IMG/VR virus record: IMGVR_UViG_3300047160_001275
Span: 12,250 to 76,249 of that record
Direction: 5' to 3' (one strand)
DNA length: 64,000 bases
Source of the DNA: a virus
Taxonomy: Duplodnaviria; Caudoviricetes
How positions within the stretch are numbered: the first letter of the stretch is position 1; every line of letters begins with the position of its first letter. Shown piece by piece: positions 12,068-63,149 of the stretch. The notes beneath the pieces were generated by a model. The model did no database searches, was not told where the DNA came from, and saw nothing but the letters and a program-made list of their open reading frames with translations. Both the position numbers and the translations under genes were made by a program.

Positions 12068-12312
12068 GGGCCGCTGCCGGGCGGGTGGCCGGGTCCGATC
12101 GCCGACCTCACCATGTCGCAATTTTCGTGGACCGGGATGAACCTTCCCGAAGTCGTCACGATCAGGCACCCCGTTCCGTGCGCCCAATGACCGGCCGAGA
12201 ACGTCCTCGGGTCGCGGATCGAGGTGATCTCGTTCGGATTGATGTCGACCCTGTGGCTGCCGTCAGGGGTCGAGAACTGGGCTAGCACGAGGGCGACGGT
12301 GAGCAGGCTCAT
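12031..12312 (-). CDS. small exported Cys-containing protein
   Basis: Signal-like MSLLTVALVLAQ; four Cys. Confidence 0.5.
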   Translation of the reverse strand: MSLLTVALVLAQFSTPDGSHRVDINPNEITSIRDPRTFSAGHWAHGTGCLIVTTSGRFIPVHENCDMVRSAIGPGHPPGSGPCTLVCGGSIRP

Positions 12313-44016: not shown

Positions 44017-44961
44017 TTAGATGCCGTCAGTGTAACAGAACGCGCCAGGCCGCCGGATCTCGGTCGAGCCGATCCTGAACACGCCGGGGATGTCGAACGT
44101 CATCGGCCCCGTCTGCCAGACCGAGAAGAACCGATGCGGCATCGGGATGTGCAGCTTCACGATCTGCGGGTCTCTCCGATAGGTCACCATTCTCGCGGTG
44201 CCGCCGATCCCCATCGTGTCAAGGTTGATGGTGGCCAGGATGGTGAGGTCTTGGCCGGTGGTTTGCTTGTAGAGGTTGTACTTCTGCAAGTACTCCAGCG
44301 CGTTGCCATAGGTGTTAGGCACGCGGGTGTTGGCCAGAAGCTGGAGGTTGGCGATCGGCAGCAGCACCGTGTCGGCCATCTCGACCGTCAATGACCCCTG
44401 ATAGACCTGGGTCAGAGAGTTCTGGACGTCGGCGATCATCTGATCGGCCGTCTTGTTGACCCACAAGGACGATGAGCCGGTGCCGGTCGCTGGCGCAGTG
44501 ACTTGCTGGACGAGGGCGTTGTTGAACAGGCCGGTGACATTCTTGCGCTTGTCGCCGACGCGGGCCATCCGGTCGACGAACTCCTCATAGGCGCGTCTGG
44601 CCGCCGCCGCCCTTTCGGTCGACAAGTTGAGGTTGGGGATCATCATCGCCTGCCCCAGTTCCTCAAGCGTATAGCGGTAGCCGATCGCCGCCATCTCGAT
44701 CGATTGCTCGTATTTGTTGCGGTTGATGTCGGCGACCGGCATGGCGGTTGCGTAGCCGTCGTACCAATCGGCGTTGCCGACCTTGTCGACCGAGTAGTAA
44801 GTGACGCTCTTCGCCCATTCGGACGCCGAGCTATCGATCGGGATCAGCCGTGTATAGAGAATATCCGGGTACTGGATGCGATAGACTTCCGGCTCTATGT
44901 GAGACGTTTGAGAAACGAGGAACCCAAACGCTTGTTGGGTGTCGTACATAGGGAATCGCAT
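44017..44961 (-). CDS. major capsid protein (DUF2184 / encapsulin-like HK97 fold)
   Basis: FLVSQTSHIEPEVY...YPDILY.RLIPI...IGYRYTLEELGQA...GDKRKNVTGLFNN. Confidence 0.9.
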   Translation of the reverse strand: MRFPMYDTQQAFGFLVSQTSHIEPEVYRIQYPDILYTRLIPIDSSASEWAKSVTYYSVDKVGNADWYDGYATAMPVADINRNKYEQSIEMAAIGYRYTLEELGQAMMIPNLNLSTERAAAARRAYEEFVDRMARVGDKRKNVTGLFNNALVQQVTAPATGTGSSSLWVNKTADQMIADVQNSLTQVYQGSLTVEMADTVLLPIANLQLLANTRVPNTYGNALEYLQKYNLYKQTTGQDLTILATINLDTMGIGGTARMVTYRRDPQIVKLHIPMPHRFFSVWQTGPMTFDIPGVFRIGSTEIRRPGAFCYTDGI

Positions 44962-45686: not shown

Positions 45687-47795
45687 TCAGTTGCGCCGGT
45701 CGGCCATTGGGGTCTTGTAGTCGTCCTGAATGCGCTTGCAGTACTCGTCGTAAGCGATGTCCTTGTCGGTCATCTGCACGCCGCTCTGATAGAAGCCAGC
45801 GCTGCGGCGGACGCCGTCCGACATGCCGTCGGCCATCCTGCGCACGCCCGATGCTTGCGCCTGGGCGGGGCCAGCGACTGCAAGATTGAACGCGCCGAGA
45901 ACCTGGGCGTCGTCCCAGCCGTCGATGAGCTTCTCGCCGCCCATCGCCGCCGCCGCGACCGCACGGCGGATCTCCTTCAGGCTCTGGGTTCCAAACTCAT
46001 ACGAGTCGCCGAGAACCTTGCGCGCCTGCGCCTTGACGGTGTCGCGGTCGCGCAGGATCTGCTCCTGCCGCTCCTCGCTGAACTCGGAATCCCTGAGCTT
46101 CTTCTTCAGGAGCGCAATCTCGCCGTCGCGGGCGGCGATCGAGTCGCGATAGCCGCGCTCCTTCTTCTCACGCGCCTGCTCAGCCGCCACCGCGTCTTGA
46201 TCGCGGGCGTCGGTGTCGTCTTCGTCATCGTCGTTGTCGTCGCCGCCATTGCCATTCTTCTTCTTGAACGGCGTGGCCTTCTTGCCGCCGAAGTTCTCGG
46301 CCTGATCGGCCACAAACTGTTCGAGGATCGACGCCGAAGCGCCATCGGAGACCTGCACCGGCAGGCCCCGGATCATCACCGTAACCATGTTCTCTGCTCC
46401 TTCCACGCCGCCATCGGCGTCTCCAGTTTCACCCAGTCCAGGCTCGCCCAGTTCGCGGGCGCGGCGGTTGATCAAGGCGCGGGCTGCCGCTGGGTTCTTG
46501 GCCCGCCCAATCGCCTGCTTGGCGTTAGCGAGATCGGCCTTGTTCTTGATCGGAAAGCCGCCATGCGGCAGCGCCTTGCCCTGCTTGGCGAGGCTCTTGC
46601 GTTCTTCTTCGCTGACGTCGCGGTCGTAGACCGCGGCCTCCGGGTATTTGGCGAAGTAGGCTTCCAGATCGGCGTCGCGGGTTTGCTTGCTCTTCGGCTG
46701 CCAGCGCTGAGCCTCGGTCGGCTTGCGCCAGCCGCGTGGGCCGAGCGGGCCTTCGTAGGAGTCAGGCTCACGCTCTGGCTCTTGGCCGGGCTTGCGCCAG
46801 CCGCGCCGGGCCAAATAGCCTTCAGAGGTGTCTGGGCTGGCCTTGGCTTCCTTCTCCCGCGCCGCCCAGGTGCGCTTCCGCGCCTCCAGCGCCGCCGCTC
46901 GCGCCTCCTCGCTCCAGGCGTCGTCGATGTCCGCGTCGCCGCCTTGGGTCGGCCGCTCGCGATAGCCGCAGGACGGGCATTCGTTGGCGTCCATCATCGC
47001 GCCACAGTTCGGGCACGGGCTCTTGGTCACCCCGTCGCCGAACCGTAAGGAGCGCCCGCCCCTGGCCACCGGCACCAGGGCGTGATGATTGGCTCTGATG
47101 TCCCGCTGCACCCCGTCATAAGCCTCGCCGTCGGGCGTCTGGCCTGGGGTCCAATCAATGTCGGTGGTGTAGCCGACGCTGAGTTCACGAACCCCGTTCT
47201 CGTAAGCCTCGATCGCCGCCGCGTCGGTCAGCATCAGCGGCACCCGCACATACTCGCCGTCCCTGACCACGTCGGAGCCAGAGAAGCCCTTGGCCACCTT
47301 GGCCCACGTCTTGGTGTCGACCATGCGCGACGGATGGGTGAGGGTGATCGGCTTGTTGGCCATCGAGTGCATGGCCGAAGCCGAGAACACTTCTTCCGGC
47401 GGACGATAGAGGGTGACGAAGTCGCGATCCCTCAGCCCGACCTCGCGGCCCCGGTAGCGCTGGGTGCCGACGCGGGCCACCAGCGCCTCGCACACCATGT
47501 AGCCGTCGCTAGTTCGCCTAACGTCGTCGAGCAGCGCCACGTCGTCGAGCAGCACGTCGCGGGTCCACATCTGTCCCTCCTGGTCGAGCAGGGCGTCGGC
47601 GGCGTGGGGCGGATGGGCCTGCCGCCACGCCGAGGACTTCTTGCCTCGGAGCTTGCCTTGCTTGGTTGCGGTCGCAGTGCCGGGCTTAAGGTTTCCGGCC
47701 TTCTGCATGGCTGCGGTGGCGATGGCCCAGGCCGAGGACTCGGAATGGCCCTTGGCCTGAATCTTCTCGGCCGCCTTGTGCAGGATGACGGGCAT
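45687..47795 (-). CDS. DUF2213 prohead protease/scaffold with inserted modules
   Basis: ARVGTQRYRG...RPPEEVF...KPITLTHP...ELSVGY...NHHALVPVARGG; extra N-terminal peptide, CPNC..CPSC, DAWSEEAR, and GKALPHGGFPIKN modules. Confidence 0.88.
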   Translation of the reverse strand: MPVILHKAAEKIQAKGHSESSAWAIATAAMQKAGNLKPGTATATKQGKLRGKKSSAWRQAHPPHAADALLDQEGQMWTRDVLLDDVALLDDVRRTSDGYMVCEALVARVGTQRYRGREVGLRDRDFVTLYRPPEEVFSASAMHSMANKPITLTHPSRMVDTKTWAKVAKGFSGSDVVRDGEYVRVPLMLTDAAAIEAYENGVRELSVGYTTDIDWTPGQTPDGEAYDGVQRDIRANHHALVPVARGGRSLRFGDGVTKSPCPNCGAMMDANECPSCGYRERPTQGGDADIDDAWSEEARAAALEARKRTWAAREKEAKASPDTSEGYLARRGWRKPGQEPEREPDSYEGPLGPRGWRKPTEAQRWQPKSKQTRDADLEAYFAKYPEAAVYDRDVSEEERKSLAKQGKALPHGGFPIKNKADLANAKQAIGRAKNPAAARALINRRARELGEPGLGETGDADGGVEGAENMVTVMIRGLPVQVSDGASASILEQFVADQAENFGGKKATPFKKKNGNGGDDNDDDEDDTDARDQDAVAAEQAREKKERGYRDSIAARDGEIALLKKKLRDSEFSEERQEQILRDRDTVKAQARKVLGDSYEFGTQSLKEIRRAVAAAAMGGEKLIDGWDDAQVLGAFNLAVAGPAQAQASGVRRMADGMSDGVRRSAGFYQSGVQMTDKDIAYDEYCKRIQDDYKTPMADRRN

Positions 47796-51699: not shown

Positions 51700-51894
51700 T
51701 TAGGCGGGACGGCGCGGGGGCTTGGGGGGCTTGGAGTGCCGCGCCGTCCCTTCCCTACGGCGAGCTAGCGCCGCAGCCCGTGCTTCGATTCTCCCTTGCG
51801 GGGAAAGCCAATTCTTCGCCCCGGTCTCCAGATCCATCTTCGAGAGATCGACCTCGATCGTCCCGTCGGGCTTCTGAGTCACCCAGTCAGGCAT
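51700..51894 (-). CDS. hypothetical protein
   Basis: 64-aa ORF overlapping the MuF stop. Confidence 0.45.
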   Translation of the reverse strand: MPDWVTQKPDGTIEVDLSKMDLETGAKNWLSPQGRIEARAAALARRREGTARHSKPPKPPRRPA

Positions 51895-54800
51895 GCTGGC
51901 CCTTCACTTCTTTCTGCACCGCAGCAATCATCTCTTCCTTGGTCGCCTCGCGCTCTGCGCCGATCGGCACCCAGCCGACGCTCGGCGCTTGGCGGTGATA
52001 GGCGTCCCACTTCTTCCACGCCGTGCCCGCGACCACCACCTCCTGCTCGCTCGCCGTGTTCTTGCCAAAGGCGGGAACCGACAGGATCGCGGTGCGCGGC
52101 GCGTTCAGCCTTATCACCGTCCGGTCGCTGCCGTCCCAGTTGTTGGCGATATGGTCGGCGACCGAGAATGAAGCCAGCCCGTTCTTCTTGATGTCCACCT
52201 TCGGCATCAGCCGGTACTTGAGATTGCCCACCGCAACCTCGATCTTCGCCGCGATGTCGGTGATCGCCTCCGGCAGGGTGACGCTGCGGTAGAGGTTCAG
52301 TTCCTTCATCCCGGCGTGGTCAAGCAGGTACTGCGTGGTCTCCCACTTGGCCCGCGCCAGAGCCTTGATCCCCTCATAGCCGCCGATCAGCGGATAGTTG
52401 GTGTCGGCCCACTCGACCACGTCGTGGCGGTCGATGCTGTAGTGCGCCCCGCCGCTCTGCAACCGGCCGCCCAATTCCTCGCTGGCCGCCAACTGCAACA
52501 ACTGGCCGCCCTTGGTCGACGAGGCGTCCAGCCAATCGCTCCACAGGAAGTCGTCGGCCAGCACGACCATGCCGGTGGGGTTCTTGATCCCGCCCGGCTT
52601 GATCAGCCCGCGTTGGTCGAGGATCTCGCCAGCCCGCCGGTTGAACAGGGCCTTGGCGATCCGCTGGGTGTTGACGTAGTCCATGCCCGAAGTTGCGTTC
52701 AGCGGATCAAGCTTGGCGGGCCGGGTGATGCGCCCCCAGTCCGCCTGCTTGAGGCTCGGCATCTGGTTCATGGCTATGGCGAACTTGTCGACGTCGTCCT
52801 TGTCGTCCCAATCCTGATTGACGCTCTCGGTCGCGTACTCGCCGAGATAATCTGGGGGGTCCATCTGGTCGATCCGCTCGTCCACCACCTCATCCATCGC
52901 CTTCTTGAGAGTCGCGACGATCTTGTCGCGCATCGCGGGCGTCAGCAGCTTGGCGTAGTCAGGCTTCTCGAACCCCTCGAACTGCGGCTGATCGCCGCCC
53001 ATTCTGGCTCTGATCGCGGCGCGGATCGCGCCTTCGGCCCAGCGGAACTCCAGTTCGCCGCCGTGGTGGTCGTAGCGCGCCTCCAGCGCGTTCAGAATCT
53101 GGTCCTTGCCCAGCGGCAGCGGAGCGAGCCCGCCCTTCTCCCACTGGCTCGGCTGCGGCAAGTGGTCCTCGTCCGACGTCTGCGGCTCGAACAGGTCGTT
53201 GAGCGCCTCCGTCGGCCATTGGTTGTCGGCCTGATGGTTGAACTCGTCGGCCAGCAACTCATAGGCGTCGGCCTTGGCCGATTCCTCCTGCCAGGAGTTG
53301 ATCTGATAATCGAGTTCCTGCTGGTAAGCGTCATGCTTCCAGTTATCCGCGACCTCGTCCTGCTGCTGACTGGTGAGATCGGCCCAGGTCGTCCGCGCCC
53401 CGCCGCCGGTCTCGACCTTCCCGGCCTTGTAGATCGCCTCGGCGTCCGCCTCGACCGTCGGCTTCGCGGCCTGCCATTCCCGCTCCAGCCGCGCCGCCGT
53501 GTGCCGGTTCCAGGCGTCGCCGCCGACGTCCACCACCGCAGGGTCGAGACCCGCCACGTCGATTGGTGGCGAGGGAGCCGTGTCATCGGCCTGCGGCCCC
53601 GCCTTCCGGTCCTCCTGCCATTGCGCGAACGCCAGCCTGAAGCCAACCAGATCGACCGGCTTGCCCGACGGCATGAACTTGTCGAGATTGGCGCTCATCC
53701 ACCGGTGCATCTCGGGGGCGGCTTCGGGGTGCGCCTTCTCAAACTTGTCGGTAGCCGCGTTGACCGCGTCGATTTTGGCCTTGTCGTCCCCGCTCGGCCC
53801 GAACTGCTGGAACCCCGCGCCGGTCTTGGCTACCTGCTCAGCCAGCGAACCGCTTTCCCCCTTCGGCGCGAACTGCCCGCCCTTGCCGCCCTCGGCCCCG
53901 GCAGGCTCGTGCAGCGGGTTGAAGTCAAGGATCGCGTCGCCGAACATCCCCACCGGGGCGAACAGGCAGCGGCAGTTGGGGTGGGCCGGAATCAGCCCGC
54001 GCGCCACATTGATGCGGTACGGGCCGTTGTCCGCGATGTCCTCGCAGACCTTGCACACCTTGTCGTCCTGCGCCGTCAGGACGTCGACCTCTAGCGGTGC
54101 GCGCCGAAACGCGGCTTCCGCCCGCTCGGCCCTGGCCTGCAAACCCTCGATCGGCAGGTAGCGCCTGAACCGCCCGGTGCGCTTGCTCCTGTATTTCTCG
54201 CGCATCTCGGCCGGGCCCCGCGCAGCCGCAGGCGACGGCGTTGGAGGCGGCGGCCCAGCCTGCCCGATCAGCCGCTCGGCCAGAGCCGCCTGCCTCACCG
54301 AAATACCGCGCAATCCGGTCGAGGCTAGCATGAGATCTCTAGCAAGCTGGCTGGCGTCGGCCGGGAGCCTGCTCCGCGCCTCGCTCAATCGGCTGATCAG
54401 ATCGGCCTGCCTCTCGGCCCCGATGTCAGGCTTGAACCACGGCTTGTTCGCCGTCTCGCGGATCAGCCGCGCCAAATCCTTGTCGCTGGTGCGCGCGTCG
54501 TCGAACAGGGCGTCCTTCACCCCATAGAGATCGTCGAGGGCGTCGTGCGCGAGGGCCGCTGACCACCGATGATGAAGCCTTTGCCAGACGGCTCGACCTT
54601 CTTGAACCGGGGATCTTGCAATAATGCCTTCGTATTCTCTTCGTGCGTCGTCCCGCTGCTCCCGGTCGGTCCCGTCTTCCTTGTGGGCGCCGATGAACTC
54701 GGCCCGCCCGTCCCGCCAGTGGATGTCTGAGCCATATCTCTGAGCCGCCTTCGCAGTCGCATCCTTAAGAGAGCCGTCTGTGTCGACCACATGAACCACG

Positions 54801-55954
54801 GCTCCGTTCGACGTGGGCTCCAATGTATGGAACGCCAGCCCGTCCGCCAGTAGGTTCTGATGTATTTTGCCCAGATCCCCTTTGGCCGGGAACGAGTACA
54901 TGTGGGCATTGGATTCAGGCCCCTCTTCCTCGCGGAAGATCAGCACCGCCTTCTGATCGCCGAGATGGCCCTTCATCGCCCCGGCCAGCTTCAGGCGATC
55001 CCAGTCCTCGCCGTCGACCTCGGTCATCAGGCTGCGTTCGGCCCCGTCCGCCCAAGCCCCGATCACCTGCGACGGGTAGCCGGTCATCCCCAGTTGCTGG
55101 TCGACGTCCTCGCTCGCCTCGGCGAACTTGCGCTCCCGCCTGGACAGCGGCGCTGTCGCTTGCGGCCAGTCCGACTGCCCGACATTGGGCGACACGAACT
55201 CGTAGCCCTCGGCGGAAGCCTCGGCCGTCCAGCGCCCGTGCGGATCGCGCGCCTCCGAGGGATCGAAGTCGAACATGGCGTCGAGCATCTTGTGCTCGCT
55301 CACCGTGCCGACCCATTGCACCCCGGCGTCCTCATAGGCGTCCAGGGTCGCCTGAGTGAACGCTTGCGTCAGCGCATGCTCGGCCAGCATCTTGCTGCGT
55401 TGAAGCCCGACGCCCATCTCGCGATCAACAAGCGCGGCGATCTGCGACGCCTGCCCACGGGGATGTGACAGGAGCCAGGCCGAAACGAGGGAAGAGACAT
55501 CCCGGCTGGCATCGTCGCAGACGCTCGCCAAGGACGCGACGCTGGCGTCCTTGCAAGCCTCACTGGAGCGCGGCCTCTTCTTGCGTTCGACGTATGACGT
55601 CTGGCTGACCGGCGGCCCGGCGAGGCTCTGGTAGTCCGCCACATAGGCGTCATGCACGCCCGTCGAGGCCCTCGCCCCGGCCGCGTCGACGTACGGCGCA
55701 AGCCATGAGCCATCGTCTCCCAGCACGTCGCTGGTCAACCGCTCGCTGAGCCAGCGCTCGAACAGCGCGGCCCTGTCGTCAGACGCCATGACCATAGCTC
55801 TCGGCCCTAAGCCCAGAGCGTCCTGGCTCACGATCGCACGCTTGACGTTCCGCGCCGCCTTGGTCCAGCGCCGCGCCATCTCGCCCTTGAGATAGACCCG
55901 CAAGTCCTCCAGCCCCATCGGGTCGGGCTTGGCGTCAAGGAACGGCGCGTTCAC
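51887..55954 (-). CDS. MuF/SPP1 gp7-like head morphogenesis protein with internal insertion and C-terminal ART-like domain
   Basis: RSKMLAEHALTQAF...; VLTAQDDKVCKVC...IPAHPNCRC (MuF core); C-terminal LYRS / ASFS / EQEVVV. Confidence 0.8.
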   Translation of the reverse strand: MNAPFLDAKPDPMGLEDLRVYLKGEMARRWTKAARNVKRAIVSQDALGLGPRAMVMASDDRAALFERWLSERLTSDVLGDDGSWLAPYVDAAGARASTGVHDAYVADYQSLAGPPVSQTSYVERKKRPRSSEACKDASVASLASVCDDASRDVSSLVSAWLLSHPRGQASQIAALVDREMGVGLQRSKMLAEHALTQAFTQATLDAYEDAGVQWVGTVSEHKMLDAMFDFDPSEARDPHGRWTAEASAEGYEFVSPNVGQSDWPQATAPLSRRERKFAEASEDVDQQLGMTGYPSQVIGAWADGAERSLMTEVDGEDWDRLKLAGAMKGHLGDQKAVLIFREEEGPESNAHMYSFPAKGDLGKIHQNLLADGLAFHTLEPTSNGAVVHVVDTDGSLKDATAKAAQRYGSDIHWRDGRAEFIGAHKEDGTDREQRDDARREYEGIIARSPVQEGRAVWQRLHHRWSAALAHDALDDLYGVKDALFDDARTSDKDLARLIRETANKPWFKPDIGAERQADLISRLSEARSRLPADASQLARDLMLASTGLRGISVRQAALAERLIGQAGPPPPTPSPAAARGPAEMREKYRSKRTGRFRRYLPIEGLQARAERAEAAFRRAPLEVDVLTAQDDKVCKVCEDIADNGPYRINVARGLIPAHPNCRCLFAPVGMFGDAILDFNPLHEPAGAEGGKGGQFAPKGESGSLAEQVAKTGAGFQQFGPSGDDKAKIDAVNAATDKFEKAHPEAAPEMHRWMSANLDKFMPSGKPVDLVGFRLAFAQWQEDRKAGPQADDTAPSPPIDVAGLDPAVVDVGGDAWNRHTAARLEREWQAAKPTVEADAEAIYKAGKVETGGGARTTWADLTSQQQDEVADNWKHDAYQQELDYQINSWQEESAKADAYELLADEFNHQADNQWPTEALNDLFEPQTSDEDHLPQPSQWEKGGLAPLPLGKDQILNALEARYDHHGGELEFRWAEGAIRAAIRARMGGDQPQFEGFEKPDYAKLLTPAMRDKIVATLKKAMDEVVDERIDQMDPPDYLGEYATESVNQDWDDKDDVDKFAIAMNQMPSLKQADWGRITRPAKLDPLNATSGMDYVNTQRIAKALFNRRAGEILDQRGLIKPGGIKNPTGMVVLADDFLWSDWLDASSTKGGQLLQLAASEELGGRLQSGGAHYSIDRHDVVEWADTNYPLIGGYEGIKALARAKWETTQYLLDHAGMKELNLYRSVTLPEAITDIAAKIEVAVGNLKYRLMPKVDIKKNGLASFSVADHIANNWDGSDRTVIRLNAPRTAILSVPAFGKNTASEQEVVVAGTAWKKWDAYHRQAPSVGWVPIGAEREATKEEMIAAVQKEVKGQHA

Positions 55955-56282
55955 CCGCTTCGCTCGGTATCTGGCGGATCACGTCCTTGTCGTCATGCGG
56001 CGTCGACGCCTCAAAGATCGTCCCCGCCTCCAGGCAATGCACCCGATGGACGCTGCGCGGCTTGACGTCCAAGGTGTCGCCGGGGCCGAGCAGATGTTTC
56101 ATCCCGTCCAGCGTCACCTCGAACTTGCCCGACAGCACGATCCAGCTTTCGTGCTTGAACCGGTGATAGTGCTCGCTAGCCCACGCGCCCTTGTCGAAAT
56201 GCAGCGACTTGCCGGTGTAGCGCTCGGTTTCCGCCCACACCTCCTCATGGCCCCACACCTTGGGCGCCACCCGCGCGATCAC
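55935..56282 (-). CDS. cupin-domain protein (sugar isomerase-like)
   Basis: PKVWGHEEVW...SEHYHRFKHESW...HRV...EASTPH. Confidence 0.8.
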   Translation of the reverse strand: MIARVAPKVWGHEEVWAETERYTGKSLHFDKGAWASEHYHRFKHESWIVLSGKFEVTLDGMKHLLGPGDTLDVKPRSVHRVHCLEAGTIFEASTPHDDKDVIRQIPSEAGERAVP

Positions 56283-58309
56283 GCGCGCCGTCCCGGCCTG
56301 ACCCCTTCGATGGTCTGGCCCAGATACGGATTGGCCTTGTCGAGAGCGAACGCCCGATGAATCAGATCCGACACGTCGTCGTCGGACTCGGCGTCGTGAG
56401 TGGCAGGCGCGTGATGCCGCAACCCCTCCAGATAGACGTGCGCCTCGCGCAACGCCAACTGCCCTTCGCCGACCGCAACCCCGACCCGGCCGATCGCGCC
56501 CTTGCGCATGTCGCCGACCGCAAACACGCCAGGGATCGAGGTCTCCAGCTTGGCGTCGGTCTGCACCCGGCCAGCCGGATCACGCTTCACCTTGCCCTCC
56601 AGCCAGCCGGTCTCTGGCACGCTGCCCAGGAACACCCCCAACGCCTTGGCGGGCACCACCCGCCCATGGTCGGTCTCGACGCTGATCGGATCGCCATGCG
56701 CGTCCCGATTCATCTTGGTCACCGTATCGCCCTCGATCACCGTCACCTTCGGATGGTTGCGCAACGCCTCGACCTGATAGTCGCTCATCCCCTTGGTGAT
56801 CAGCGATCGGGAGATGAGGGTGACGTGCTTGGCCTTGCTGGCCGCGCCCAGCGCCGCCTGGGCCGCCCCATTCGAGCCGCCGACCACCACCGCCTCGCCG
56901 TCCTTGCACGCCTCGGTCAAAGCCTTGCCGTCGCCGACGATCACCCCAGACCCTTCCGATCCGGCGAACACCGGGTGGCGGAACTCCACCCCGCCCGCCA
57001 GGATCACCGTGCGGCTGTCGACGTGCTCGCCATTGCTCAAGGTCAGGTGCTTGATCCCGGTCGCCGGGTCATAGTCGATGCCGGTCACCCGCTGGCCGAG
57101 CTTGGTTTCCGCCCCCAGCCGCGTCGCCTGGGCGAACATGTCGCTCGTTAGCTTCTCGCCGGTCACCCCCACCGGGAAGCCGGGGAAATTCTCGATCCGG
57201 CTCGAATACTTGGCCTGCCCTCCAGGCGCGGCGTTGCTCTCCACCACCAAAGTGTCGAGGCCCTCAGCGCCGCCGAAGATCGAAGCCGCCAATCCGCCGG
57301 GGCCTGCGCCGACCACGGTCACGTCACGCGGCCCTCCCGGCAGCCCGATCCCTTCCGGCCCGCCAGGATCGGCGTGCAGGCCGTGCATCTGGTGGACCAA
57401 AGCCTCAAGCTCGTCGATCTTCTTCTGCGCTTCCGGCGAGTCTGGCCTGTCGACATAGGTCAGTAGCTCATTGTTGACCTTGGCCCACTGGTCCTTGAGG
57501 CGATGGAACTTCTCCACGTCGCCGGGCGCCAAGCCATAGCCGCCCGACGTCCATTTGCCCGCCGGATCGCGTGGCTCGTCGGGGTCGAAGTCGGAGATCT
57601 CGCGCGGATCGAAGTCGTCCAAGGCGTCGGCGAAATCCTGCAAGCCAGCCAACACCGTATCCTCGGCGTCCGCCTGCCCGCGCCAGTCGACCGGACGCTC
57701 GCTCAACTCAGGCAGCTTGGTGATCTCGTGATAGTGGTCGAGCACCGCATGAGTCGCGCTCTTCAAGATCTCGTGCGCCCGCTCAGGCGTGAAGCCATGC
57801 TTTTTGGCCAGATGCCCGATCGCATATTTGACCACCTCGTGGCCGAGATAGCCAGCGCCCCAGGCGAACGCCGCCGGAATGCCGAGATGCGCCACCCCCA
57901 TCGCCGTGGCAGCGCCGCCGATGATCTCGATCACATGCGCCGACACCTCGCCCAGGACCGCGTGATGCGCCACCCCCTCGGCGTGATGGGCGACGAAATG
58001 CGCAATGGCGTTGGGGATGGCGTGCGCGACCCCAGGATGAGCTAGGAGCGCGTCGACCGCCGCCTGATGAGCGATGAACGCCGCCGAGGTCGCCGCCGCC
58101 TGCGGGATGAACCACGCCGTCATCTGGGACCAGTCATGCTCGCCGAACTCGCTCTCGGCCGAAGACCCCTCGGCCGTGGTCCATTCGCCCCGCTCGTTGC
58201 GCGGCTGGTCGGGATCGTAATCCTCTAGCTCTTCGTCCTCTGGCTCTAGCTGCTCGGCCAGTTCCTCTTCTTCATCGGGGTCGAACCAGATCCGCTTGAG
58301 CGCGGTCAT
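56279..58309 (-). CDS. tagged protein with C-terminal thioredoxin-reductase-like FAD oxidoreductase domain
   Basis: GAGPGG, APGGQA...SSRIENFPGFP.GVTG, ETSIPGVFAVGD; two DxDPxxPRxxxGxW tags; no CxxC. Confidence 0.8.
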   Translation of the reverse strand: MTALKRIWFDPDEEEELAEQLEPEDEELEDYDPDQPRNERGEWTTAEGSSAESEFGEHDWSQMTAWFIPQAAATSAAFIAHQAAVDALLAHPGVAHAIPNAIAHFVAHHAEGVAHHAVLGEVSAHVIEIIGGAATAMGVAHLGIPAAFAWGAGYLGHEVVKYAIGHLAKKHGFTPERAHEILKSATHAVLDHYHEITKLPELSERPVDWRGQADAEDTVLAGLQDFADALDDFDPREISDFDPDEPRDPAGKWTSGGYGLAPGDVEKFHRLKDQWAKVNNELLTYVDRPDSPEAQKKIDELEALVHQMHGLHADPGGPEGIGLPGGPRDVTVVGAGPGGLAASIFGGAEGLDTLVVESNAAPGGQAKYSSRIENFPGFPVGVTGEKLTSDMFAQATRLGAETKLGQRVTGIDYDPATGIKHLTLSNGEHVDSRTVILAGGVEFRHPVFAGSEGSGVIVGDGKALTEACKDGEAVVVGGSNGAAQAALGAASKAKHVTLISRSLITKGMSDYQVEALRNHPKVTVIEGDTVTKMNRDAHGDPISVETDHGRVVPAKALGVFLGSVPETGWLEGKVKRDPAGRVQTDAKLETSIPGVFAVGDMRKGAIGRVGVAVGEGQLALREAHVYLEGLRHHAPATHDAESDDDVSDLIHRAFALDKANPYLGQTIEGVRPGRRA

Positions 58310-60669
58310 TTGACGATGCTCACGTCGACCACGAACGGATGCTGCGGCGTCTTGCGGCCCAGCCTCGGCACGTTGCCCAGATGAATCACCTCCTGATTCG
58401 GCGCATGCACCCCGTCGATCCTGAACTTGACGCCCCTAGGCAGGATCACCTCATGCTGCTGCATGCCACTCTTGAAATCCTGCGAATGGCGGAAGTTGGT
58501 GCCATGCGTGTCGAACGCGCTCTGGCCTTTCTCGGCGTGGATGTGGAACACGATGTGCTCGCCAGCGTGCGGCCCAAAGGCGTAATCGTAGGCGACCGCC
58601 TGCTTGGTGGTCGCCGAAGTGAAGCCCTTCATCTGGACCACCTTGCCCAGCGCCTGGGTCAGCGTCTTGGACGACAGCTTCTTGTTGCCCATCAGCCCGC
58701 GATAAAGCAGCGTGTCATTCTGGAGCTTCGATCGCCGGATCGCCTTGTCAGTATCAGCGACGCCTCTGGCGTCGGCCTGCGACATGTACGACTTGCCAGT
58801 CCCCTGGCCGCGCAACGCTCGGTTCCAGCGCTTGTAGCCTTCCTCGGTGTACTTGCCCAAGCCCTTGATCTCGTCCCTGCTCAACGGCCCGCCGTGCAGC
58901 TTGGAGAGCTTGCCGACCGTGTCGCCCTTGCTGAACGATCCGCCGCCGCCCGACGTCCATTCGCCCTTGGGATCGCGCGGCTCGTCGGGGTTGTAGTCCT
59001 CGAATGCGGCGTCCTTGCCAAACCGACCGCCCCCTTGCTGCGGCATCGGCGACGGCGGCAGCGCCCGTCCAGGCGGGGCGCGAATCGGCAACCCTGCCTG
59101 CTGCATCTGCTGGGCGCGCATCATGTGGAACGGGTTGGCCTCGAACTGCCCCTTGTTCATCATGCCGGGAGGCGGGGTCGGCAATTGCCGCATCTGCTGC
59201 TGCGGCTCTTCCGGCTTCAGCCCGAACTCGTCAGCCGCGTCGTCCCACCCCGGATAGATGTCGTCCTCGGAGATCTGCGACGCCACCGACTGCCGGAACA
59301 TGTCGTCGTTGAACAGCCCCAGCGACGAATAGACCTGCGTCGTCTGCGCCTTCTGCAACTCGGCCTGCGCCTTCTCGGCAGGCGTCGGCTTGTACAAAGG
59401 GTTCCAGATGTAGTCGATGTCGGGGTCGTACTTGCCCAACGCCGACGATTGGATCGCCACGTCAAGCGGGTGCATCAGCGGCTTGTAACGGGTGCGCTGA
59501 TCGGCCGCGATCGAATCGTAATAGTTGCGAATGTCGACCTCGCCGCCGCTCGACCCCTTGGCGTCCAAGCCGCGCGCAGGCGCTGACCCCATCGCCCGGC
59601 TCTGCGGAATGCCGCCCGCCGCGCACACGATCTGCATCACCACCCGAATAAGCTCAGGCGTCGAGCCGAAGCTGGTCTGAATCCGGTTCCACTCTTCTTC
59701 CTTGTCGAGCAGGAGGGTGTTGATGCTGCTCTTCGCCGTGTTGGCCAGGGTGAACCGCTGCAACAGCTTGTTGGTCAGTTCCGGCGTCGACATCTTGCGC
59801 GACAGTTCCGGCAGCTTGACCACGTCCATCTTGGCGTCGTTGATCATCGAGGCGAGGCCGCCGACGATCATGGCGAAGTCGGAGAGCGCATCCTCGACCG
59901 TCTGCAACACCGAGTCGCCCCAGCCGCCGCCCATCGGCGCGAGCCGCCAGTCGGGCAACTCGTTGCCGTAGAACTCGATCACCCGCGACGGGTGGATGTA
60001 GACCGGGTTCTGCGCCTCCACCCACTGCCTGCTCTTGTCGCCCCCAGGCGGGTCCTTGCCGTATGAGACCGGCGGCGGCGATGCGCCGAACCGGCCCGCA
60101 GGATCTCTGCCGAAGCCGCTGACCGGGATTTGGCTCCCCGGCCATGCGCCGCCCTGTTCGCCCATGAAGCCGAACATCGGCGTCGCGATCTGATAATATT
60201 CCGGCCGCGTGTAGTACGGCGAGTTGACGTTGTAGATGCGCGGCCCGGCGTTCAATTCGTAGCGATTCAAAACGACCACAAACTCCAAATCGTCCTTGCC
60301 GATGTCCTCAAGGTCAAGCTCATCCTCGGGCTGGCCCTGGTCGACCCCCATCACCAGAGCCGCGCCGCCGTAGAGCCGCGCGCGGATCAACGCCATCTGC
60401 ATCTTCTTCTGGACTTGCAGCTTACGCTCACACGCGCCGATCGCCGCGATCTGCTTGTCGTTGGCCTGCCACGCCCGCCATTCCTTGGTCGCGTCCTCGG
60501 CGGGGGCGTCGACGATGATCTTGGCCAGCCAGTCAGAGCGATACATCGTCTCCAAGACGCTCCGGTCCAGTAGCTGGAGCATCCACTGGTTGCCGGTGCG
60601 CGGGTCTTTCTGCGTCCCCAGGCCAGAGACGAAATTGACCAGCGTGTCGCGCAGGGTGATGAAGCCCAT
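58306..60669 (-). CDS. DUF1073 portal protein fused to a C-terminal VIP2-like ADP-ribosyltransferase
   Basis: Portal: YRSDWLAKIIVDAPAED...ARLYGG...IHPSRVI...WGDSVL. ART: KYTEEGYKRWNRALR...LYRG...FTSAT...QHEVILPRG.KFRI. Confidence 0.88.
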   Translation of the reverse strand: MGFITLRDTLVNFVSGLGTQKDPRTGNQWMLQLLDRSVLETMYRSDWLAKIIVDAPAEDATKEWRAWQANDKQIAAIGACERKLQVQKKMQMALIRARLYGGAALVMGVDQGQPEDELDLEDIGKDDLEFVVVLNRYELNAGPRIYNVNSPYYTRPEYYQIATPMFGFMGEQGGAWPGSQIPVSGFGRDPAGRFGASPPPVSYGKDPPGGDKSRQWVEAQNPVYIHPSRVIEFYGNELPDWRLAPMGGGWGDSVLQTVEDALSDFAMIVGGLASMINDAKMDVVKLPELSRKMSTPELTNKLLQRFTLANTAKSSINTLLLDKEEEWNRIQTSFGSTPELIRVVMQIVCAAGGIPQSRAMGSAPARGLDAKGSSGGEVDIRNYYDSIAADQRTRYKPLMHPLDVAIQSSALGKYDPDIDYIWNPLYKPTPAEKAQAELQKAQTTQVYSSLGLFNDDMFRQSVASQISEDDIYPGWDDAADEFGLKPEEPQQQMRQLPTPPPGMMNKGQFEANPFHMMRAQQMQQAGLPIRAPPGRALPPSPMPQQGGGRFGKDAAFEDYNPDEPRDPKGEWTSGGGGSFSKGDTVGKLSKLHGGPLSRDEIKGLGKYTEEGYKRWNRALRGQGTGKSYMSQADARGVADTDKAIRRSKLQNDTLLYRGLMGNKKLSSKTLTQALGKVVQMKGFTSATTKQAVAYDYAFGPHAGEHIVFHIHAEKGQSAFDTHGTNFRHSQDFKSGMQQHEVILPRGVKFRIDGVHAPNQEVIHLGNVPRLGRKTPQHPFVVDVSIVK

Positions 60670-61793: not shown

Positions 61794-63149
61794 TCACCCC
61801 ACCCAAGACAGAGTCGAATCGTATTGTGACCCGGTGATCATCAGTTCGCTCAACGCCCACACCAGCGCGTCGACGCGATCCGGCGAGCCCTCGCCCATAT
61901 AGCCGTCGGTCGCCATTTGCGTCATCTGGTCTTCTAGGAGCGGCATGTCGCCGACATGGGACACCAGGGAGCGCTCATAGAGGGTCGCCACCGGCTCGGC
62001 CCGCTGGATCTTGCCGCGTGAGGCGACGACCTCCTGATAGGCGACATATTCATTGGCCCCGGCAGCCATCTTGATCGTGTGCTCGACCATCGCGCCGCCG
62101 AAATTGCGTTCTGCGACAATGCGATCGGCGTCGAACTCGCGATAGGCGTCTATGGCCCGTCGAGCCCAAGCGGCAGGGGATAGCTTGCAACTACGATCAG
62201 CCAGCACATAGCCTCGACCATCCACGCCGCGACCAGCCACCACGATGCCAATAGAAGAGGAAGCCACATCGCTCATCGTCCTCGCGCCTGACGGATCGAT
62301 CGCCACCACCACGCGGGCGAGATCGGGAACCGGAGATGGCGCGTTGGCCCTGGCGTCATCGATCATCGTGCGGGTCCAAAGCGCGCCGGGCAAATCCTCG
62401 ATGATCTCGGCGTTGATCTCCTGGCGGCCGACCCGCGTGCCCTCCAAGGGCTTGATCACCTCGTCGTAATAAACTTGGTTAAGGTTGACCCGGTTGTCCC
62501 AGGTCGAGCCGACGGTGAGGTGGGTCGATTCAGCTTTCGCCAGCCGTTTGATCAGCGGAATCGGCCGTGGCGTGGTGGTGACGATGCCCCTCGGCTTGCC
62601 CTCGCGCATGCCGAACAGCATGTTGGTCCAGCCGTCCTGGGCCCGCCGAGCCTTGGCTAGCTCGTCCCACCAGAAGAAAGAGCCCGAAGCGCCGCGCGTC
62701 ACTTCGGGGTCCTCCGCCGAGAACAGGAGGGCTCGCGCGCCATTCGGCCATTTCAAAACGGACTGGCCGGGATGGTAAGAGGGCCTGTGCTCGGGCGGTC
62801 CGACGTTGAGGAACCCACTCTGCCCCTCGATCGAGTATTGCCGCATATCGAAGGCGGTGTCGGCGACGAAGCTCATCACCCGAGGGCAGTGTGGCGCGGC
62901 GATGAGCGGCGTCGGGCCCCGGATCATTGCGGCGATGTTCTCGACCGCCGTGCGGGTCTTGCCCCAACCGCGCCCGGTCATGATCATCCAGATGAACCAG
63001 TCGCCTTCTGGCAACTGTTGCTCGGGGCGACCCCAAAAGCCCCAGTCCCAGGTCAGCGCTTTTGCCTGCGTCTCAGTTAAGCCGTCGAGGATCGCGTTCC
63101 TCTGCGAGGCGCTCAGCAATGCCAGCGATCCTGCCTCGGATAAGCTCAC
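61794..63149 (-). CDS. terL: terminase large subunit
   Basis: GRGWGKTR (Walker A), FWWDE (Walker B), VTTTPRP, VVAIDPS, SPDRVDALVW. Confidence 0.95.
   Translation of the reverse strand: MSLSEAGSLALLSASQRNAILDGLTETQAKALTWDWGFWGRPEQQLPEGDWFIWMIMTGRGWGKTRTAVENIAAMIRGPTPLIAAPHCPRVMSFVADTAFDMRQYSIEGQSGFLNVGPPEHRPSYHPGQSVLKWPNGARALLFSAEDPEVTRGASGSFFWWDELAKARRAQDGWTNMLFGMREGKPRGIVTTTPRPIPLIKRLAKAESTHLTVGSTWDNRVNLNQVYYDEVIKPLEGTRVGRQEINAEIIEDLPGALWTRTMIDDARANAPSPVPDLARVVVAIDPSGARTMSDVASSSIGIVVAGRGVDGRGYVLADRSCKLSPAAWARRAIDAYREFDADRIVAERNFGGAMVEHTIKMAAGANEYVAYQEVVASRGKIQRAEPVATLYERSLVSHVGDMPLLEDQMTQMATDGYMGEGSPDRVDALVWALSELMITGSQYDSTLSWVG

Follow-up and report, generated by a model that had tools for sequence, protein, structure and literature searches.

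A recurrent header peptide at the start of cargo modules in the head region of an uncultured phage and its relatives

A stretch of 64,000 nucleotides (the window throughout this text) covers positions 12,250 to 76,249 of the IMG/VR virus record IMGVR_UViG_3300047160_001275 (Caudoviricetes), a record of 76,249 bases that IMG/VR rates as complete. Its head module contains three co-directional minus-strand genes that carry copies of one short peptide, here called the tag: they encode a 787-amino-acid (aa) portal fused to an ADP-ribosyltransferase (ART), a 676-aa free protein and a 1355-aa MuF-type protein (Table 1). The gene order is large terminase (TerL), portal-ART, free protein and MuF, with a DUF2213 prohead protease and the capsid protein farther along the same strand. 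Read in six frames, the window holds four strict copies of the motif D[FY][DN]Px[EQ][PA]R[DN]xxGxW, all on the minus strand and confined to the portal-ART gene, the gene for the free protein with its thioredoxin reductase (TrxR)-like domain, and the split MuF gene. Neither the six window frames nor the whole virus record contain a further strict match, and the reversed pattern, used as a control on the whole record, gives 0 matches. Against a profile that excludes the window's own copies, the four score 36-41 bits; the original prediction, made by reading the sequence, had located exactly these copies, and they prove to be the sole strict matches in the window.

The portal (Phage_portal_3/DUF1073, aa 39-445, E 2e-80, Pfam) continues through a linker and tag 1 into a C-terminal domain of the ADPrib_exo_Tox family (aa 596-756, E 3e-13, Pfam), in agreement with the ART that had been predicted behind the portal tag. 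In the free protein, tag 2 precedes a His/Ala-rich segment, which is read straight from the sequence, and tag 3 precedes a flavoprotein domain. The latter had been called TrxB-like: the match to Pyr_redox_2 (aa 329-616, E 4e-34, Pfam) upholds the flavoprotein assignment, while model TIGR01292 reaches 153 bits against a cut-off of 343, so far below it that the domain counts as a divergent relative and not as a thioredoxin reductase proper. Another tag-headed protein, P0106, matches the same Pfam families as this module.

The MuF-type protein matches head-morphogenesis and minor-head families over aa 8-213 and 626-668 (~1e-6, PHROGs) and gives no match at E<=0.01 in Pfam, Phage_Mu_F included. 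BLAST against other loci (named L plus a number) reveals that MuF-N (aa 3-229) and MuF-C (aa 620-674) are contiguous in L017, a related virus, so that the protein of the window appears to be a normal MuF interrupted by a module. In the same comparison the insert (aa 243-504, ~260 aa) finds homologues in L058, L057 and L014, there too as modules headed by a tag, which bears out the predicted insertion behind tag 4; the insert carries a tag at its start border and none at its end border. Beyond MuF-C lie a possible fifth, long-loop variant of the tag and a 660-aa extension. The variant had been proposed as a tag from the outset: the narrow tag profile recognises nothing in it beyond ILDFNP, but long-loop intermediates in other proteins (...NPDQPRVPAGxxxGGQW, DFNPNHDPKTGQF) bridge it to the main tag form, which makes a fifth copy plausible.

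A second ART had also been predicted in the MuF extension. Three motifs, YR[SG], SxS and ExE, are invariant in 3 homologues of this extension, and a language model gives a weak lead to DRAT, DUF4765 and ART clusters at 0.90-0.91; the second ART is on this footing a candidate. Nothing was obtained by BLASTP or hhalign against the portal ART, by phmmer against the PDB or by Pfam on the three homologues, and the AlphaFold2 (AF2) model, with a predicted local distance difference test score (pLDDT) of 47, is too poor for a fold search.

Table 1. Tags, nearby motifs, genes and comparison loci; positions refer to the window unless a locus is named.
Feature	Position	Strand	Context
Large terminase (Terminase_6N/6C)	61794..63149	-	upstream end of head module
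Portal-ART gene	58306..60669	-	portal, Q/P-rich linker, tag 1, ADP-ribosyltransferase
GRDPAGRF fragment	60088-60108	-	portal aa 188-194, Gly/Pro-rich stretch
KDAAFED	58996..59013	-	directly before tag 1
Tag 1 DYNPDEPRDPKGEW	58957..58998	-	portal-ART aa 558-571, then TSGGGGS; 41.3 bits
Free two-module protein	56279..58309	-	tag 2, His/Ala-rich segment, tag 3, TrxR-like flavoprotein aa 329-631
Half-tag WFDPDE	58271-58288	-	free protein aa 8-13, before tag 2
Tag 2 DYDPDQPRNERGEW	58181..58222	-	free protein aa 30-43; 40.2 bits
DALDD	57614..57628	-	before half-tag and tag 3
Half-tag DFDPRE	57605-57616	-	before tag 3
Tag 3 DFDPDEPRDPAGKW	57551..57592	-	free protein aa 240-253; 36.4 bits
TrxR-like domain	56417-57325	-	within the free protein
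MuF-type minor head protein	51887..55954	-	MuF-N, tag 4, inserted module, MuF-C, variant tag, 660-aa extension
DAMFD	55268..55282	-	directly before tag 4
Tag 4 DFDPSEARDPHGRW	55229..55270	-	MuF aa 229-242, insert start; 36.4 bits
DALDD, DALFD	54500..54544	-	MuF aa 471, 481, C-terminal part of insert
DAILD	53924..53938	-	directly before variant tag
Possible fifth, long-loop variant tag DFNPLHEPAGAEGGKGGQF	53870..53926	-	MuF aa 677-695, adjoins zinc-ribbon end
ART-like core (YRS...SFS...EQE), unverified	51965..52357	-	C-terminus of MuF extension
DUF2213 prohead protease + scaffold-like tail	45687..47795	-	Pfam DUF2213, E 4e-48
DALLD	47583-47597	-	DUF2213 protein aa 67, just before protease domain
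DUF2213 domain as cut	47010-47543	-	numbering of His70, Ser122, His153
Major capsid protein (Major_capside/DUF2184)	44017..44961	-	without tag, without DA motif
2101-aa portal-borne chain	L017:182-6484	+	portal, tag, cupin, tag, more modules
Tagged lysozyme	L098:3802-4782		Nitrospinota metagenome-assembled genome
Three-gene toxin island	L109:10001-12284		among transporter, DinB, hydantoinase genes
Three-gene toxin island	L110:10001-12276		among transporter, DinB, hydantoinase genes

Beyond the window, a back-translated degenerate DNA pattern of the tag finds 90 copies in 75 IMG/VR loci, the reversed pattern finding no locus there, and 28 loci in 185,579 prokaryote species (one genome per species), mostly Alphaproteobacteria (Bradyrhizobium, Lichenihabitans, Stellaceae) together with metagenome-assembled genomes (MAGs) of Clostridia. 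A profile built from 108 copies and searched against 1.84 billion representatives, with clusters taken at the 50% identity level, matches 3,636 clusters at E<=1e-3 and 542 at 1e-10. Of these 3,636 matches 150 are listed as sequences, and among the matches listed a single protein carries up to 9 copies. The hosts of the tag range over Alphaproteobacteria, Clostridia, cyanobacteria and Planctomycetota. Cultured strains with a tag-bearing candidate prophage include Bradyrhizobium elkanii WSM2783 (L083), Bradyrhizobium sp. BRP22 (L080) and Lichenibacterium ramalinae RmlP001 (L088).

The consensus over 602 instances is h-x-[KAD]-[FY]-[DNS]-P-[DNS]-[QE]-[PA]-R-D-[ED]-x-G-[RK]-W-[TS]-x-G-G-G. Positions that the search pattern leaves free are conserved too, namely K or R at -1, T after the Trp and then three or four Gly, through which the tag opens into a flexible Gly/Ser linker. 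The invariance of P, R, D, G and W over thousands of clusters indicates selection on the peptide itself. It had been claimed that each tag starts at an Asp; this is true of the window, but the position is K, A or D across the 602 instances and a leading Asp is consequently not general. Immediately ahead of the invariant Pro stands D in 380 of these instances, N in 134 and S in 83. A D, N or S followed by Pro and, three residues on, by Q or E is the classic helix N-cap "capping box", and the tag thus displays the pattern of a helix N-cap, a structural turn. Folded alone, the peptide is predicted as a small hairpin with moderate confidence (pLDDT ~75 over the motif), a model that does not indicate any function. 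Two candidate identities lose weight on these residue counts: an EF-hand/DxDxDG calcium loop, which needs acidic residues at positions 1, 3, 5 and 12 and Gly at 6, where the tag has K/A/D at 1, Q/E at 6 and Gly at 12; and the FlhB/EscU-type NPTH site, which needs an invariant Asn in a folded domain, where the tag has D, N or S and flanks that are variable or Gly-rich.

Neither Pfam nor NCBIfam has a family over the tags, and multi-tag proteins are without a precomputed Pfam domain. No PDB chain matches the tag at E<=1, plasmids give no real match to a 40-aa tag query (tblastn, of low sensitivity), and a literature search on the strings QPRD and EPRD returns unrelated papers alone. The header peptide therefore appears to be undescribed in the searched literature and family libraries, in line with the remark, made when it was first noticed, that a tag shared across portal, MuF and free protein could not be named.

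The position of the tag within proteins was analysed for 215 tag-bearing proteins (198 for the first tag). The first tag lies at most 50 aa from the N-terminus in 59 of the 198, with some proteins starting with a tag 3-10 residues after the Met, whereas the last tag lies at most 50 aa from the C-terminus in only 4 of 215; at least 100 residues follow the last tag in 97% of the proteins, and the median spacing between tags is 229 aa. From this N-terminal bias, the rarity of C-terminal tags and the spacing, the module unit is tag, Gly-rich linker and one domain, a header layout that all the copies of the window obey. That the tag marks the start of an appended or inserted domain, as predicted, holds well beyond the window. 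The domains behind tags include ART, Zeta toxin, topoisomerase IB, RelA/SpoT, GNAT, NUDIX, PI3/4-kinase-like, DUF7178, DUF3626, cupin dioxygenase, MuF and prohead proteases. Sixteen portals of the window's family bear a C-terminal tag, and their cargo falls into 11 unrelated groups. An extreme chain of portal-borne cargo is the 2101-aa protein of L017, in which portal and tag are followed by a cysteine-dioxygenase-like cupin, a second tag and more modules. In L098 the tag heads a Phage_lysozyme domain, so that cell-wall hydrolases are also found among tagged modules; GH25, amidase and PG-binding proteins occur among the neighbours of tagged genes.

The genomic context of the tag is that of the head module. 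Of 67 segments that lie upstream of a tag, 17 are portals, and these belong to five Pfam families. Large terminases (three families) and portals predominate among the largest same-strand neighbours upstream, prohead proteases and capsid proteins among those downstream, the proteases being DUF2213 in 9 cases, S78 in 6 and XkdF-type (S78_2) in 3. The predicted generality of the tag is supported, as it heads modules on portal, MuF and free proteins across unrelated portal, terminase, protease and capsid families. Co-occurrence with DUF1073/DUF2213/DUF2184 heads had been proposed as a check; the tag co-occurs equally with S78 and XkdF-type proteases.

A second element, DA-h-h-(E)D, is seen in this phage. 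The three tagged proteins and the DUF2213 protein together contain 7 copies, where shuffling predicts 0.24; 0 of 5000 shuffles attain 7. Four copies directly precede tags and three others, independent of the motif definition, lie at further boundaries; an xDA site had been noted as often standing just before the tags, and the motif does stand ahead of four tags and at two domain boundaries elsewhere. Tags of one and the same protein, along with the 4-5 residues preceding them, are more alike than the tags of other phages. A PTL|D flank before the tags of the Lichenihabitans group does not recur in other head proteins of the locus DNA examined. The putative enzyme for such sites, the DUF2213 protein, keeps His70, Ser122 and His153 invariant in 18 homologues (numbered in the cut domain). 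A His/Ser/His set is expected of an assemblin-type prohead protease, and the conserved residues fit a Ser protease of this type. The tail of the same protein is long, charged and scaffold-like, with a CPNC...CPSC zinc ribbon.

The motif is thus real, widespread, head-associated, module-heading and independent of its cargo. The reading put forward here, with a probability slightly short of even, is that the tag serves as a head-sorting label accompanied by an adjacent, phage-specific site of proteolytic release. A header of ~20 residues at the N-terminal edge of each head-cargo module, be it fused to the portal, fused to or inserted in MuF, or encoded by a free gene, would sort or dock the module into the assembling prohead, and the module would later exit with the DNA. 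Modules borne by portal or MuF would be freed by cutting at a separate site near the tag, here DA-h-h-D, with the DUF2213 prohead protease as the probable cutter. The portal remains in the virion, and the portal-fused ART can accordingly enter the host only after being cut from it. The single tag at the start of the MuF insert fits a module label better than paired release sites.

Several results weigh against a head-sorting label. Modules fused to portal or MuF ought to do without a loading signal. The tag-bearing phages differ too much in their portals, capsid proteins and proteases for an obvious common tag-binding pocket, and all-against-all BLAST of the open reading frames (ORFs) of ~104 short loci identifies no common co-encoded receptor: only portal, protease, MuF and capsid families recur, none of them in most loci. 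The isolated phages of INPHARED give no match to the 40-aa tag query (tblastn, with its low sensitivity). The DA-h-h-D motif was partly defined post hoc; in related phages no tag was seen to be preceded by it, which confines the lead to this phage. Complex prediction, in which the tag peptide was paired with portal domain, capsid protein and DUF2213 domain as alignments, returns a score of 0.00, evidence neither for nor against.

A further point against this reading comes from Stellaceae-like chromosomes, in which the genes around a tagged Tox-REase-5 family of ~445 aa are ordinary metabolic ones, and the 10 kb to the left and right of the toxin island are free of phage genes. In these proteins an N-terminal domain of 100 aa leads up to the tag at residue 102; a hydrophobic stretch and a conserved middle part come next, and the Tox-REase-5 end is variable. 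Such a tagged chromosomal toxin suggests a role that is not tied to capsids, or else loading in trans. The tag is therefore strongly but not exclusively a head-module feature; a restriction to head proteins, as the original prediction implied, holds as an association and fails for this family. Two further small ORFs of the island (~165 and ~139 aa) are candidate immunity genes. A bolder form of the sorting label, in which ~20 residues would load any protein into unrelated heads as a universal address code, and in which particles of phage, prophage or gene-transfer type, made by the same cell, would take up the tagged chromosomal toxins in trans, is unlikely.

Other functions have to be weighed against sorting with release. 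The tag might itself be a processing signal at which the prohead protease, or a co-delivered one, cuts the polyprotein, acting as a removable propeptide in the free proteins. The domain-sized intervals at which tags punctuate polyproteins (up to 9 per protein among the matches listed), the necessity of releasing portal-fused cargo for injection, the prevalence of K or R at -1 and the resemblance of tags and their preceding residues within a protein, as if co-evolving with a phage-specific enzyme, all speak in its favour. Yet the same motif is found with three prohead-protease families, and the tag is absent from the capsid protein and, by the tag profile, from the DUF2213/scaffold protein, the substrates of this phage; both facts argue that the tag is not a general prohead-protease motif. 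Where a free protein has its tag 3-10 residues from the start, cutting would set nothing useful free, which makes a pure cutting site pointless there, and the MuF insert is tagged at 1 of its 2 borders. A processing signal is on balance a rather doubtful explanation.

It is distinctly unlikely that the tag acts during or after ejection, as a threading leader or refolding nucleus or as a binder of a conserved host factor. Its conservation over the four host groups named above is easier to reconcile with a universal partner, or with an intrinsic property, than with a receptor peculiar to one phage, and the chromosomal toxin family without nearby head genes, the flexible Gly-rich linker that always follows the tag and the small hairpin predicted for the lone peptide are compatible with such a role; no result indicates a host factor or a translocation mechanism, however, and the association with the head module is very strong. 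A passive joint, that is, a linker kept since recombination between its copies swaps cargo and without biochemical function, has very little probability. One portal family with 11 unrelated cargo groups behind its tag, and a MuF insert module that recurs behind tags in other phages, speak for it. Conversely, the tag DNA copies of the window are 61-78% identical pairwise without a long exact run, which points to conservation at the protein level and to selection on the peptide rather than on a recombination sequence, and the five invariant residues argue in the same direction. In the toxin family, the tag was rejected as a recombination junction, as variability begins ~200 residues downstream and not at the tag. 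Finally, self-cleavage of the Asp-Pro or Asn-Pro bond via a cyclic imide or anhydride, which would free modules without a protease in the manner of the NPTH site of FlhB/EscU or the Asp-Pro site of FrpC, is improbable in the extreme: all strict copies share [DN]-P and related variants read N-P-x-H, which may be likened to NPTH, but Ser, which cannot cyclise as Asp and Asn do at a Pro bond, precedes the Pro in 83 of the 602 broader instances, the capping box suggests a structural turn and argues against an obligatory cleavage, and the known sites reside in folded domains whereas the tag lies between variable or flexible sequences.

Among known systems, the T4 capsid targeting sequence and the propeptides of phiKZ and SPN3US are short N-terminal signals for the prohead interior that are tied to cutting by the prohead protease; they are lineage-specific, removed after a Glu and present once per protein. 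A T4-type sequence is both required and enough for entry into the prohead. The T4 sequence is the closest functional analogue of the tag, without sequence resemblance, and the likeness is positional, resting on the N-terminal bias. In contrast to these signals, the tag recurs within polyproteins and across phages whose head machineries are unrelated. Encapsulin cargo-loading peptides are likewise short, attached by a Gly-rich linker, and dock varied enzymes inside an HK97-fold shell; they are usually C-terminal, of other sequence and with a known binding groove, whereas the tag is N-terminal to its modules. In polymorphic toxins a constant part is joined to a variable toxic part by a short junction, such as PxxxxDPxGL in Rhs or VENN in CdiA. 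The tag is also present in the chromosomal Tox-REase-5 family, yet far ahead of its variable region, and the Rhs motif, unlike the tag, belongs to a folded autoprotease.

The class of proteins that bear the tag is already known, as phage polyvalent, portal-fused and MuF-fused effectors. Polyvalent effectors, and effectors fused to portal, MuF or protease, have been described in which ART, Zeta toxin, NUDIX, InPase and topoisomerase domains accompany MuF or portal, with predicted packaging and injection (PMC5512222; PMC9503650). The tagged proteins share their domain repertoire and gene position: they combine at least two unrelated domains per polypeptide, and their genes belong to the head module, where they adjoin or are fused to those of portal or MuF. 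Text searches of these two papers turn up nothing on a short peptide heading the modules; the processing proposed there is by zincin-like metallopeptidases (PMC5512222; PMC9503650), a domain type not seen here. MuF polymorphic toxins consist of an N-terminal MuF carrier and a variable C-terminal toxic domain (PMC5576092), and the MuF-type protein of the window may end in an ART-like domain, for which its motif signature speaks. Here, by difference, the MuF is split by an insert, and the same tag serves portals and free proteins too; the text of PMC5576092 does not mention a motif, linker, cleavage, junction or recombination.

Phage head enzymes that are injected with the DNA are known, but the way in which they are selected and set free is understood in only a few model phages, and the signal differs from one to the next. 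One peptide common to thousands of uncultured phages would make cargo sorting directly testable, and would provide a sequence handle for injected anti-defence and host-takeover enzymes in metagenomes. Were it sufficient for loading, it would offer a simple route for bringing chosen proteins into phage particles.

Shorter pieces of the motif are also present in the tagged proteins. A likeness to the second half of the tag is seen in GRDPAGRF, from a part of the portal rich in Gly and Pro, and in RDPAGR of the TrxR-like domain (aa 576-581); both fragments may be due to chance. In the free protein, two half-tags keep only the first, capping-box-like half of the motif, and a full tag follows downstream of each.

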